Shown: positions 6,029 through 27,405, counted from the stretch's first letter. The stretch is 64,000 bases of DNA from Gammaproteobacteria bacterium (GCA_050298595.1 JBNKUM010000085.1:64001-128000), one strand, 5' to 3'. Notes: a model not told the origin generated them from the letters alone. A program made the numbers and translations.

Positions 6029-6363
6029 TAAACTAGAATCCGCAGCTGGACGAGTTGTAGTGCATTTGAGGTGGCGTAGATCAAGGCGTGACGACACGAA
6101 ATAGCAAGCTATTCCAGGGGAGTTACAAGGCTTCCGCGTCCTGCTCTCGCCCCTTACCTATGTCCCTATAGGCAAGGCTTCCGCGTCCTGCTCTCGCCCC
6201 TTACCTATGTCCCTATAGGCAACGCAGTGATACACGCCTCAAACGTGCAATTCAGTTCGTAGCGGGATTTACCGATTGGGTGAAAAGATACATCAACTGT
6301 AATGGTTTATAAAACAGCAGGTTACCCTCTTATGCGAGCGGTCAACTGCGGAATCCAGGTTTA
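6029..6363. mobile_element. MITE-like element with nested tandem insertion
   Basis: Imperfect TIRs TAAACTAGAATCCGCAGCTGG / GTCAACTGCGGAATCCAGGTTTA; core TCAAGGCG..AATAGCAAGCTATT..CAACGC shared with the element at 344-508. Confidence 0.65.
6126..6222. repeat. Perfect 47-bp tandem duplication (2 copies plus closing CAA)
   Basis: CAAGGCTTCCGCGTCCTGCTCTCGCCCCTTACCTATGTCCCTATAGG at 6126 and 6173, CAA at 6220. Confidence 0.95.
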
Positions 6364-23340: not shown

Positions 23341-23976
23341 TCAGCTAGCTGTGTGTGCGGCAACCCATAGTTGAATCAGACGCATGCCAGAGTGCTGTAT
23401 ACTATCACCAAACAGGATTACCCCGTCCTCATGGCCGCCCATTATTAGCGTGTCACATTCAATGAGTTTGCTGTGCTGATACAGACGCTGCACTTCCTGA
23501 GCCATTTTTACTGTACCATATTCCACATCGGCTGCAGTTGTCGGATAGCCATGTTGTAACCCGAATTGCCACAACAACGGATCATGAATATGGAACACGC
23601 TCTGGATAGCAGGGTTTAGTTGATAAATCATTGCGTGACTTAACGCCTCAGAAGAAGGTGGTAAACAACCCAACGCCTGTATTCGATTGCTAGCAATATC
23701 AAAAGCTTCAACCAGAGTGTAATGCGAGGCATCCAGCTTTGGCACAGACCCGGTCTGCGATGCCGAAATGATAAATTGTTCTGTTTTCTCAACACATCTC
23801 TGGCTGAGATTTCCGAATCCATAGCCCAGATAACGGTCTTCCTGCTGTCCAATCAAACCCAGACCATACATTATTGAGCGCCAGTAATTTAGCTCACTAA
23901 GGTCCTGCTGTACAGGCTCTGATGCCTTAAAATCAAGCCGATACTTAATGACGCCTTCTGATTCCTGCACAGACAA
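23341..23976 (-). CDS. Class II aldolase/adducin family protein
   Basis: EGVIKY, GFGNLS, PSSEALSH..Y, FHIH, YGT, GHEDG. Confidence 0.8.
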   Translation of the reverse strand: MSVQESEGVIKYRLDFKASEPVQQDLSELNYWRSIMYGLGLIGQQEDRYLGYGFGNLSQRCVEKTEQFIISASQTGSVPKLDASHYTLVEAFDIASNRIQALGCLPPSSEALSHAMIYQLNPAIQSVFHIHDPLLWQFGLQHGYPTTAADVEYGTVKMAQEVQRLYQHSKLIECDTLIMGGHEDGVILFGDSIQHSGMRLIQLWVAAHTAS

Positions 23977-24054
23977 ACACCTCGGATATTAGTAAACTAT
24001 TTCAAAAAAACCACATTATTTGTCTGAGAACTGACATAGGTCAATTAAATTATT

Positions 24055-24075
24055 TTAAGGGGTCGGAACCCTTAA
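24055..24075. repeat. REP-like palindrome upstream of the RAYT homolog
   Basis: TTAAGGGGTCGGAACCCTTAA imperfect inverted repeat. Confidence 0.5.
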
Positions 24076-24140
24076 TTGCCGAGTGTGACCACTTGATATA
24101 CACTATAGCATCATTTACATATCAGCAAGAGGATTACGCG

Positions 24141-24833
24141 ATGCCGAGAAAACCGAGATTTTATCTTCCGAATTACCCAGTGCATATCGTTCAACGTGGA
24201 CATAACAAGAACAATGTATTTTTTGAACCTGATGATTACAAAGTATACCTTGACTGGTTACAGGAAGGTTCAGAATGGTACGAAGTTCCAATTCATGCCT
24301 ATGCTTTACTTCCCAATGAGATTCATATTCTGGCCTCTCCAGGCGATAAAGAATCTGCCAGCCGCATGATGCAATACCAGGGGCGTAGATACGTTCCATA
24401 CATCAATAGCACCTATGACAAGACAGGCACTATCTGGCAAGGCCGCTACAAGGCCAGCCTGATCGACCCTGATACTTATCTGGTTAACTGCATGCTACAT
24501 ATTGAAAGCCTGCCAGTTAAAGAAGGGTTAGCTAAATCACCTGCGCCTTACAAATGGTCTAGTCACAAAGCTAATGCTCAGGGTAAAAAGAATGCATTGA
24601 TCACCCCTCATGCTGCTTTTAAGGCTCTAGCCAAAGGTGATGCCAAGCGCATGGAAAAATATACGGCCATGGCCAAGACCGGATTGTCAGATGAAATCAA
24701 TACCAATATTCAGGATGCCTGGCAAACTGGCACGCCATTGGGTTCTGATAAATTCAAAGCCATGGTAGAGCAAAAGCTGAATATCAAAGTGGGCCACTCT
24801 AAACGCGGTCGCCCACGTAAAAGCGCAGCCTGA
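24141..24833 (+). CDS. REP-associated tyrosine transposase (RAYT / Y1-HUH) homolog with catalytic residues substituted
   Basis: MPRKPRFYLP..HIVQRG.N, HAY.L.PNEIHIL (normally NHxH), WQGRYK, HIESLPV (normally YIELNPV), YKWSS, C-terminal RGRPRK; RBS AGAGGA. Confidence 0.85.
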   Translation: MPRKPRFYLPNYPVHIVQRGHNKNNVFFEPDDYKVYLDWLQEGSEWYEVPIHAYALLPNEIHILASPGDKESASRMMQYQGRRYVPYINSTYDKTGTIWQGRYKASLIDPDTYLVNCMLHIESLPVKEGLAKSPAPYKWSSHKANAQGKKNALITPHAAFKALAKGDAKRMEKYTAMAKTGLSDEINTNIQDAWQTGTPLGSDKFKAMVEQKLNIKVGHSKRGRPRKSAA

Positions 24834-24853: not shown

Positions 24854-24887
24854 AAAAAAGGCGCCGCTCGATTGACCGGCGCCTTTT
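24854..24887. terminator. Bidirectional intrinsic terminator
   Basis: AAAAAAGGCGCCG..CGGCGCCTTTT between convergent genes. Confidence 0.75.
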
Positions 24888-24910
24888 AATGTCAGTTATA
24901 AGAAGTGTCG

Positions 24911-25963
24911 TTAGAGCATAGGGGGCTCTTCATTAATATCATCATCATACTGGGGGTTATGCTCTTCCTGAAACACCTCGACCATTTCTGCAGCACTATC
25001 CGGCTCACTAAAAATGGCTATATGAAATAGAGCCTCTCCTTCGTTCACCAATGGCAGGTTAGTTCGACCAATCACTATACCGGATGCAGTCGCCAGCACT
25101 GCTTGCTCATGTTTTCCCAATGGGTCAGATACCCAGCCGATAACTGCTTTCTTCCTTACCTGGGTACCAAGTGCAACTATAGATCGTAAGATACCGCTTT
25201 GAGGCGCTCGTACCCATAAAGTATTGTTCGCAATCAGCGGCTCTGACATAGCCGTTCGTTTTTTCCTGGATGCTGGCAGCATGCCTAAATATCGCATCAC
25301 ACGGGTAATACCTGTAACTCCGGCACGAATGGATAGCTCATTGAATCTCAGCGCTTCACCTGCTTCATAAAGTAAAACAGGGATACCATCCTCAGCCACA
25401 GCTTCACGTAATGAACCATCGCGTAACTCAGCATTAATGATCACTGGCGCACCGAATGCCCGGGCCATTTCTTCAGTTTGTATAGAGTTATGTACCTTAG
25501 CCCTTACTTGCGGCAGATTTTCGCGCCCCTGAGCACCGGTATGGAGGTCAATCCCGTGGGTACATTGCCTGACTACTTCATGCATAAAGGTATACGCCAG
25601 GCGGGCAGCCATCGACCCCTTTTCTGAGCCTGGAAATGAACGGTTTAGATCACGACGATCTGGAAGATATCTCGATCGCGTAATGAACCCATACACATTC
25701 ACCACCGGCACCACAATGAGTGCGCCCTTAATCTTATAGATATTTTTTTTCAGCAGTAACCTGCGAATAATTTCAACACCATTAATTTCATCACCGTGAA
25801 TGGCGGCACTTACAAAAAGTACTGATCCATTACGCTTTCCGTTGATGACATACACCGGCATAGAAACGGGTGAATGCGAATACAGCTCAGGTAAGGGAAT
25901 TTCGATAGATTGATGCTGCCCGGGTTCAACCTTTATACCACCCAGAATGATGGTGCCTGGCAT
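24911..25963 (-). CDS. Succinylglutamate desuccinylase/aspartoacylase (M14-like) family protein
   Basis: AAIHGDEING, DRRDLNRSFPG, IDLHTG, YEAGE. Confidence 0.9.
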   Translation of the reverse strand: MPGTIILGGIKVEPGQHQSIEIPLPELYSHSPVSMPVYVINGKRNGSVLFVSAAIHGDEINGVEIIRRLLLKKNIYKIKGALIVVPVVNVYGFITRSRYLPDRRDLNRSFPGSEKGSMAARLAYTFMHEVVRQCTHGIDLHTGAQGRENLPQVRAKVHNSIQTEEMARAFGAPVIINAELRDGSLREAVAEDGIPVLLYEAGEALRFNELSIRAGVTGITRVMRYLGMLPASRKKRTAMSEPLIANNTLWVRAPQSGILRSIVALGTQVRKKAVIGWVSDPLGKHEQAVLATASGIVIGRTNLPLVNEGEALFHIAIFSEPDSAAEMVEVFQEEHNPQYDDDINEEPPML

Positions 25964-25966
25964 GGC

Positions 25967-26872
25967 TCACCCCTTACCCTTGGTTGCAGTTCGTCCCTGT
26001 TTGCTGTTAGTTTCGAGAAATCCAATAATCATCCCGGCAACATCCTTGCCAGTAGCTTCTTCAATGCCCTGTAGTCCAGGAGATGAATTTACTTCCATCA
26101 CCACTGGACCGTGATTCGAGCGTAATAAGTCAACACCGGCGACATTCAATCCCATGATTTTGGCTGCGCGTACTGCTGTTGAGCGCTCTTCGGGTGTAAT
26201 GCGAATCAGTGTCGCAGAACCACCTCTATGCAGGTTAGAGCGGAATTCACCCGCCACCGCCTGTCGTTTCATTGCAGCGACTACCTTTCCGCCAATGATA
26301 AAACAACGAATATCTGCACCGCCGGCTTCCTTGATATATTCCTGCACCAGAATATCCGCCTTCACGCCCATAAAACCTTCGATCACACTTTCGGCTGCTT
26401 TCTGGGTTTCTGCCAGCACCACACCTATACCTTGAGTACCCTGCAATAATTTAATCACCAGCGGTGCACCACCAACCATTTTAATAAGATCTTTAATATC
26501 GTCTGGCTTGTTTGCAAAACCGGTAACTGGCATGCCGATACCGCGTCTCGACAGTAACTGCATGGAACGTAATTTATCTCTGGAACGGGTAATCGCAACT
26601 GATTCATTCAAAGGATATACCCCTCCCATTTCAAACTGCCGTACTACTGAAGTACCATAGAAAGTCACTGATGCACCAATACGTGGAATTACTGCATCAA
26701 ACCCTGTTAATTCTTCGCTTCGATAATGAATGGTGGGCTTATGCGAGGCGATATTCATATAGCATCGTAATACATCGATGGTTTGAATTTCATGACCTCG
26801 TGCCTTTGCCGCCTCTACCAGACGACGGGTCGAGTAGAGATTCTTATTTCTCGATAATAGTGCAATTTTCAT
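25967..26872 (-). CDS. rimK: Ribosomal protein S6-glutamate ligase RimK
   Basis: [45 protein letters not shown]; start at 26872. Confidence 0.95.
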
Positions 26873-26909
26873 AGTACTTATTCCGCAATATGCGTTGAAT
26901 TTTGAATTT

Positions 26910-27365
26910 CTAGATGCTGTACAAAGCAACTGCGTCCACTCTGCCACATAAGAAAGAGGCCGCTGGATCTACCACAATATTTTTCTCCATCGCCTCGCGC
27001 CCCAAAAGCATACGAAAGCGCATACTGTCACGGTTGGTGAGTGTTAGCTGTATAGGTATTTTTAGTTCAGCAAGTTGCATATGTGTTTCTATCACATAGC
27101 GCATTTCCCTATGTCCACCCGAATCGGTAACCTGACGCTGATCCAGTAACGGGGCTTCACACTCTACGACTAATGAATTGTTTTTCTGCAAAGGATGCAT
27201 CTTAAAACGCACATAATCCTTACCTGATCTCTGGAAAGGATCAACCTGAAACGCATGCAAAGCTGAAGTTTTTGCGCCAGTATCCACCTTGGCCTTTATC
27301 GCGGGCAAGCCCAAATCAGGTAATGCCAGCCATTCGCGCCAGCCCACAGTAAGTAGACTATTCAT
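26910..27365 (-). CDS. RimK-associated retropepsin-like protease
   Basis: [39 protein letters not shown]. Confidence 0.88.
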
Positions 27366-27405
27366 CAATATTTACCAGGTTTAAATGCGTTTTTTAGCGC
27401 TCAGG

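Follow-up and report, generated by a model that had tools for sequence, protein, structure and literature searches.

The 230-residue protein P0001 of a gammaproteobacterium is probably an immobilised TIRtron derivative that no longer cleaves DNA and is kept for DNA binding, including binding to its own retained transposon end, and it would be at least autoregulatory. We hold this reading, which is drawn from sequence comparisons, to be reasonably likely. It supposes an ancestral TIRtron, that is, a Y1/HUH transposase gene bracketed by terminal inverted repeats of the GGGGWSAS type, which would have become fixed next to a class II aldolase gene before two genera split from their common ancestor. 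The right repeat is missing, and the left repeat survives at the -35 box of the gene itself. Throughout the clade, the first histidine of the HUH motif and the asparagine of the Y---NP motif, two of the three metal ligands, are replaced, the catalytic helix has lost most of its ancestral conservation and, in the genome studied here, a tyrosine-to-histidine change is added. Very strong purifying selection acts on the rest of the protein, which comprises the HUH beta-sheet core, WSS motif, helical C-terminal domain and RGRP tail. The protein would thus no longer move DNA and would be kept for sequence- or structure-specific DNA binding; recognition of its own retained end would imply autoregulation of its own promoter at the least.

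Gene organization and family assignment

The gene lies in a stretch of 64,000 nucleotides of assembly GCA_050298595.1 (JBNKUM010000085.1:64001-128000), hereafter the window, and coordinates are counted from its first letter. The features referred to below are the following.

23341-23976, - strand: divergent class II aldolase-family gene (Pfam Aldolase_II), a conserved neighbour
24015-24044, - strand: promoter-like site of the divergent aldolase gene (TTGACC, 18 nt, AATAAT), by consensus match only
24059-24073, + strand: core of the retained left terminal inverted repeat, GGGGTCGGAACCCTT, of the GGGGWSAS type and largely invariant in 15 upstream regions
24076-24104, + strand: putative promoter of the P0001 gene, with -35 TTGCCG (24076-24081), a 17-nt spacer and -10 TACACT (24099-24104)
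24129-24133, + strand: ribosome-binding site GAGGA, 7 nt 5' of the ATG; G.GGA is invariant or nearly so in the upstream alignment of the orthologues
24141-24833, + strand: P0001 coding sequence with its stop codon, for a TIRYT-derived protein of 230 aa
24315-24326, + strand: degenerate HUH motif N59-E60-I61-H62, first His replaced (E60 is GAG at 24318-24320)
24498-24515, + strand: catalytic-helix motif, with H120-I-E-S-L124-P where relatives have Y-I-E-L-N-P and hence His (CAT at 24498-24500) at the Tyr position
24801-24821, + strand: basic, AT-hook-like tail K221-R-G-R-P-R-K227, at the low-confidence C-terminal end of the structural model
24860-24888, no strand assigned: GC-rich hairpin with a T run, a likely terminator between convergent genes, read directly from the sequence

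The reading frame is intact in the window from the ATG at 24141 to the TGA at 24831-24833 and is preceded by GAGGA, as an earlier note on this DNA had said in describing a full-length frame with a good ribosome-binding site. That note also gave the gene a terminator of its own. The hairpin is indeed there, with a GGCGCCG/CGGCGCC stem followed by TTTT, and a similar one is also found at loci L012-L015, but it is not among the results of the terminator scan, an omission that we attribute to its loop of about 11 nt, which exceeds the scan's stated limit of 8 nt. In the upstream alignment of the 15 orthologues, TTG and TA.ACT of the P0001 promoter are invariant, and it is from this conservation that we infer the promoter at 24076-24104. 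The promoter scan did not return this + strand site because it matches the consensus at just 8 of 12 positions.

P0001 belongs to the TIRYT branch (TnpA-Y1 subclass 2.1, Bertels Group 1) and is not a REP-associated RAYT, the label under which the gene had first been described. It matches Pfam Y1_Tnp (PF01797) with 32.1 bits against a cut-off of 23 (E 1.4e-7), and its 46.4 bits with NCBIfam NF047646, the REP_Tyr_transpos equivalog, fall below the cut-off of 80. In its passages on classification, the survey of Quentin et al. (2018, PMC6006769) equates subclass 2.1 with the Group 1 RAYTs of Bertels et al. (2017, PMC5581495) and with the TIRYTs of Di Nocera et al. (2013, PMC3733652), and describes it by a W[EQ] motif, a proximal SS motif, a length of about 238 aa and a conserved C-terminal domain. 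The relevant parts of PMC3733652 and PMC6006769 present the TIRYT branch as not REP-associated and as bracketed by terminal inverted repeats that share GGGGWSAS. We place P0001 in subclass 2.1 on its length of 230 aa, its WQ (in WQGRYK) and WSS (in KWSS) motifs and its conserved C-terminal domain. It departs from the subclass in having N-E-I-H for the NH[V/Y/F]H motif with its two histidines, H-I-E-S-L-P for Y---NP (YIELNP) and, instead of bracketing GGGGWSAS inverted repeats, the left copy alone.

An AlphaFold2 model of P0001 built on 144 sequences (pLDDT 92.8, pTM 0.89) is disordered only in the basic tail, with pLDDT dropping over the last 20 residues. Its best PDB match in Foldseek is TnpAREP in complex with a REP hairpin (4er8_A, E 2.6e-8, TMt 0.75), followed by the ISDra2 and IS608 transposases, and the best solved-structure match by sequence profile is likewise E. 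coli TnpAREP (E 1.6e-6). HIVQRG, WQGRYK, YKWSS, WQTGTPLG and KRGRPRK, listed in the earlier note as a retained scaffold and an AT-hook-like tail, are all found. For the tail the comparison with AT-hooks has to be loosened: Pfam AT_hook (PF02178) stays below threshold (12 bits against a cut-off of 17.4, E 0.21), and the RGRP core alone resembles the motif. The stretch WQTGTPLG...RGRPRK aligns with canonical relatives and RGRP is conserved across the whole subfamily; the KRGRPRK tail is ancestral and no new feature of P0001.

The 16-mers flanking the P0001 gene occur at most twice in the genome, and its 15-nt repeat once. A REP or MITE link was considered and rejected, as the genome's commonest 16-mers come from an unrelated repeat and are absent from the flanks of the gene. 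The idea that P0001 reads the genome's REP/MITE hairpins is thus left without support, and the cognate DNA would instead be the single retained terminal repeat at the gene's own promoter. The genome carries about 45-58 copies of the unrelated dispersed repeat (core such as CACGCCCCTTACCTATGTCCC), two of them 47 nt apart in the window (6146-6166 and 6193-6213), and this type of repeat may be what had been meant by REP/MITE hairpins.

Loss of catalytic residues in P0001 and its clade

Canonical relatives read N-H-I-H and Y-I-E-L-N-P at the two motifs that are degenerate in P0001. GAG is two bases away from either His codon (CAC or CAT), and the metal-ligand Asn has become Leu (L124, codon 24510-24512). 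In a profile alignment to E. coli TnpAREP (4er8), E60 and H62 correspond to the two HUH histidines, H120 to the Tyr and L124 to the Asn of Y---NP. According to the passage on the active site in Quentin et al. (PMC6006769), this Asn, N119, makes up the metal site together with two histidines, as Q131 does in IS608 TnpA. Taken with the alignment, this leaves P0001 without the nucleophile and without two of three metal ligands, and the prediction that this His120 allele no longer cleaves DNA can be regarded as secure.

Both unusual codons, GAG and CAT, are unchanged in contigs from three additional runs (X2-X4) that belong to the likely source's own study and are not independent populations; a further run, X5, has no coverage of codon 120. 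The agreement of X2-X4 shows that the codons are no assembly slip. The same three runs also contain contigs with the upstream sequence of L012- and L013-type loci (at window 24111-24125), which indicates that several related species bearing the gene co-occur in the samples.

The clade as a whole has lost the metal site and the context of the catalytic helix, as the counts at the catalytic positions show. Across 43 clade clusters, the query among them, the first HUH position is Glu in 35, Gln in 7 and Arg in 1, while the second His is kept in 43 of 43. The Tyr position holds Tyr in 40, His in 2 (P0001 and P0031) and Phe in 1 (P0014), and the Asn position, Y+4, holds Leu in 41 and Gln in 2. All of the 78 next-nearest relatives outside the clade have His, His, Tyr and Asn at these four positions. 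The 15 genome orthologues agree with the clusters in having Glu, Gln or Arg at the first HUH position (Arg in L024) and Leu or Gln at the Asn position. In alignment A1, of 34 sequences, the Glu of Y-I-E never varies. When sites that are at least 95% conserved in canonical relatives are considered, 68 of 92 are kept in the clade, and the changed ones are concentrated in the first His and helix 113-128 (11 of 14 sites changed, against 13 of 78 elsewhere; Fisher test, p = 1e-5, for a segment picked after seeing the data).

The Tyr-to-His change is private to the window genome, as Tyr is present in the 14 other genome orthologues; loss of the Tyr is thus a later, private step, and one that happened in other cluster lineages too. 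Several claims of the earlier note can be judged on this basis. Its reading of N-E-I-H and H-I-E-S-L-P, with the codon positions and the two-base distance of GAG from a His codon, is correct, and so is its view that the loss is focused on catalytic residues. Of its two substitutions, the orthologues share that of the first His, which is E, Q or R clade-wide, and not that of the Tyr. The description as catalytically dead is well founded for this allele and, with the Tyr kept in 14 orthologues, is not proven for the whole clade, in which we nevertheless consider a loss of cleavage likely.

Departures from the canonical set also occur more widely. Among the 150 representatives of 50%-identity clusters that rank nearest to the query, an automated alignment call gives 43 with a non-canonical residue in at least one of the four catalytic positions, in a ranking that may be biased by the query's own degenerate motifs. 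A search among protein representatives, used to count degenerate lineages, gave only relatives of 61% identity or less. Examples of full-length TIRYT-like proteins include L029 (G023:C123), with H-V-Q and Phe, and P0122, P0161, P0179, P0203 and P0264, which are degenerate at HUH, Tyr or Asn positions.

A single retained transposon end

The upstream alignment of the 15 orthologues contains three conserved islands in otherwise diverged DNA: the terminal repeat, the -35/-10 pair and the ribosome-binding site. The clade consensus of the left repeat is GGGGTCAG[C/T]ACCCTT. The window copy reads GGGGTCGG, with one mismatch to GGGGWSAS, the repeat consensus given for TIRYTs in the description by Di Nocera et al. 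(PMC3733652), and it is two bases off a 15-nt core that is common to several orthologues and to G015, a genome of a sister genus. The repeat directly abuts the -35 box of the P0001 gene. On its other side, the promoter-like -35 box of the aldolase gene is 14 nt away, and the block ATAGATCA at that promoter-like site is partially conserved in the same alignment.

Among 39 canonical relatives, GGGGWSAS is present within 200 nt upstream in 23 and its reverse complement just past the stop codon in 13, with both ends in 7; the pattern used was strict and the counts are hence lower bounds. No right repeat was found within 200 nt downstream of the gene in 14 of 14 orthologues, either in the strict search or in a search that allowed up to 5 substitutions. 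A weak gapped likeness, CTGACTCC, is seen in the downstream hairpin of some orthologues. A reading of the left repeat itself as a hairpin was rejected, as its fold as single-stranded DNA is weak and not distinctive (-4.9 kcal/mol, z = -1.4).

The strongest evidence comes from the distribution of the 15-mer. It is present as one copy per genome in 12 clade genomes, always at the P0001-type gene, and has zero copies in nine genomes of other families. G015, by comparison, has ten copies (AAAAGGGGTCAGTACCCTT), on contigs C11, C17, C22, C25, C42, C89, C115 and C127 (L123-L130), and two of these bracket an intact HUH+Tyr TIRYT gene (L027/L123). This distribution argues that the repeat started out as the cognate end of the ancestral element and has ceased to spread in the clade. 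We hypothesize that P0001 binds most likely at this retained end; the repeat may also be conserved simply as part of the promoter. At locus L124 of G015, an inverted pair of 15-mers about 50 bp apart looks like a miniature non-autonomous element.

The window genome (G000) holds 26 Y1_Tnp matches, and many of its TIRYT paralogues have in-frame stops or frameshifts. The matches are located on contigs C94, C76, C75, C111, C30, C21, C9, C25, C15 and others; several paralogues are still placed between inverted repeats such as TTAAAGGGGTCGGAGG...CCTCCGACCCCTTTAA, and the one at C94:875-1555 is intact, with HVH and YIELNP. The repeats of the paralogues and that of P0001 have the terminal AAAGGGG(T/A)C(G/A)G in common and differ in their inner parts.

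Orthologues, synteny and selection

Orthologues with 66-96% identity are found in 15 of 41 related genomes searched, in 13 of the 14 genomes of the window's genus (g1) and in both genomes of a second genus (g2). They are full length in 14 genomes, with one copy cut by a contig end, and the protein is also full length in 42 other clusters of the clade. The sole genus-mate without a match, G002, has two contigs that stop about 100 nt past the upstream element, and its copy is therefore probably unassembled and not absent. The two contig ends (L121 and L122, at G002:C15 and C124) have different upstream DNA and an identical copy of the repeat and promoter, which suggests two gene copies or two strains in this assembly. 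A 90-row tree recovers the clade, with 14 rows, as monophyletic (SH-aLRT 99) on a long stem (0.47) and nested in a 36-row group with canonical HUH+Tyr proteins (SH-aLRT 97).

The class II aldolase-family gene adjoins the P0001-type gene divergently in all 15 orthologous loci, in fragmentary form in one (L015), and the AstE-like/RimK side is common only to the five closest genomes. The conserved aldolase-rimK synteny named in the earlier note as something to look for thus stands for the aldolase side, with this one interruption, and not for the rimK side. The slot between the P0001 gene and a metallo-beta-lactamase-fold gene is variable (window 24911-27368, L016 2247-3221): in the window's subgroup it contains AstE-like, RimK and zinc-protease genes and in G003 (L016), the one genome compared outside that subgroup, a 324-aa ORF whose N-terminus is hydrophobic, followed by the same metallo-beta-lactamase-fold gene. 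In L015 (G001:C4), the aldolase and AstE-like neighbours are fragmentary (about 700-1340 and 2570-2740 of the locus), and the transposase-derived gene is intact at 92% identity, as are its repeat and promoter. No clean pre-insertion site was found in genus g4, in which the aldolase homologues are 42-44% identical and lie in another context.

The P0001 gene is better conserved than its neighbour. In every locus the identity of the P0001 orthologue exceeds that of the aldolase (82% against 54% in L016), and dN/dS is 0.015-0.063 for the P0001 gene as compared with 0.10-0.17 for the aldolase gene (Nei-Gojobori, 10 close pairs). On the terminal branch to the window genome, estimated from the distances to L013 and L014, dN is about 0.013 and dS about 0.23, and constraint is therefore not relaxed there. 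The earlier note had described a gene that is not decaying, and the range of 15 genomes, the full length of the copies and the low dN/dS uphold this. It had also reasoned that closest homologues with H and Y and a dN/dS near 1 on this branch would indicate recent decay; the orthologues do keep the Tyr, but in all of them the first His is gone and dN/dS is far from 1.

Alternative explanations

Other readings of these data have to be considered. It has some plausibility, but is in our view unlikely, that the clade still consists of active single-strand nucleases or transposases with a remodelled metal site of Glu or Gln plus His, the loss of the Tyr in the window genome being recent and private. 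In its favour, Glu and Gln can in chemical terms coordinate a metal, all 43 clusters keep the second His, and the Tyr is kept in 40 of 43 clusters as well as in the 14 other orthologues. On the other hand, Arg occupies the first HUH position of L024, the Asn that serves as third ligand has given way to Leu in 41 of 43 clusters, and in the 3 of 43 in which the Tyr is replaced (His in P0001 and P0031, Phe in P0014) the ORF has been kept, in the window genome along a terminal branch with dN and dS that show no relaxation. Residual activity also sits poorly with the missing right repeat and with the lack of dispersed copies in the clade, compared with the ten of G015 and its intact relative. The very same contrast can be turned in favour of a trans-acting inhibitor that would confer transposon immunity by occupying GGGGWSAS-type ends or by poisoning the complexes of invading active TIRtrons, a role to which we assign a slightly smaller chance. 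Consistent with it are the 26 Y1_Tnp matches in P0001's own genome, many with in-frame stops, and the terminal AAAGGGG(T/A)C(G/A)G that the repeats of the paralogues share with the P0001 repeat. This support is circumstantial, however: the inner parts of the paralogue repeats differ, and decayed paralogues would be expected even in a genome without an inhibitor.

The position of the repeat between two -35 boxes raises the question of whether P0001 could be a dedicated regulator of the divergent aldolase gene. The aldolase is the neighbour in 15 of 15 loci, and the repeat lies between its promoter-like site and the conserved P0001 promoter, but in G001 (L015) only fragments of the aldolase are left beside a P0001-type gene, repeat and promoter that are all intact. 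The AstE-like gene is fragmentary there too. A dedicated regulation of the aldolase is therefore improbable, all the more as the aldolase evolves much faster than its putative regulator; the adjacency may merely record the ancestral insertion site. Least credible of all is that a transposase gene was recently inactivated and is now turning into a pseudogene. The genome does contain many pseudogene paralogues, but this gene keeps its full length across 14 genomes and another 42 clusters, has a dN/dS of 0.015-0.063 and is conserved across two genera better than its neighbour, so that the present data contradict a pseudogene. To return to the explanation that we favour, an immobilised derivative kept for DNA binding, a site at its own promoter alone would not explain such strong selection, and its host function would therefore have to involve other targets or partners.

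Relation to known systems and implications

P0001 resembles the TIRYT/TIRtron group, as characterised in the sections of PMC3733652, PMC6006769 and PMC5581495 that describe it, in its Y1_Tnp core, its length in the range of about 230-240 aa, its W[EQ] and WSS motifs, its C-terminal domain and the lack of REPs. A GGGGWSAS-type repeat likewise precedes the start codon by about 60-90 nt, and P0001 is nested among canonical members. In contrast to these, the P0001 clade lacks the first His and the Asn of Y---NP, with the Tyr replaced as well in the window genome, and P0001 has no right repeat, a fixed chromosomal position and, in most clade genomes, a single copy of the repeat. E. coli TnpAREP/RayT (4ER8; subclass 2.2, Group 2) is the best structure match and, like P0001, is single-copy and host-fixed. 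However, TnpAREP keeps HUH, Tyr and Asn in 165 aa and has flanking REP hairpins, which occur in hundreds of copies, whereas P0001 has no REP family and an extra C-terminal domain of about 80 aa. The HUH/Y1 fold is also that of the IS200/IS605 TnpA proteins (IS608 and ISDra2; 2VJV and 2XM3), but these are mobile, multicopy proteins of about 140 aa with a Y---Q motif, and P0001 is immobile with a degraded catalytic set. For the proposed course of events, the closest parallel may be TldR, a TnpB-derived, nuclease-dead repressor, described in the portions of PMC10705468 on which we draw as a transposon nuclease that has lost catalysis and is kept as a DNA-targeting regulator. For P0001 this would be a functional analogy only, as its fold is HUH and not RuvC and as TldR is RNA-guided, with no guide RNA indicated for P0001.

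In their main descriptions, the family surveys PMC3733652 and PMC6006769 report that every member conserves the HUH and Tyr motifs. Searches of the literature for a RAYT or TIRYT with a degenerate catalytic set found none described; the supplementary alignments of PMC3733652 and PMC6006769 might show such members. As a tentative idea, which we consider possible and on balance doubtful, TIRYT-type Y1 transposases could repeatedly yield an unrecognised class of host DNA-binding proteins, in which the HUH fold is silenced and one transposon end is kept as the gene's own operator. If this were true, the P0001 clade would be one instance of the class, and about a quarter of the nearest cluster representatives (43 of 150) likewise deviate at a catalytic position; the selected function could then be genome defence against incoming TIRtrons with the same GGGGWSAS ends.

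In the usual account, RAYT and TIRYT genes encode domesticated transposases that have kept their DNA-cutting activity. The P0001 clade is a clean natural case in which the catalytic set has been dismantled, with the fold, the C-terminal domain and one transposon end very strongly selected. The His allele, the Tyr-bearing orthologues and a canonical relative with the same 15-nt core as several orthologues form a natural comparison set, and such variants could help to tell DNA binding and cleavage apart in a biochemically uncharacterised branch of the family. The P0001 clade thus suggests that the HUH fold can have a non-catalytic role in bacteria.
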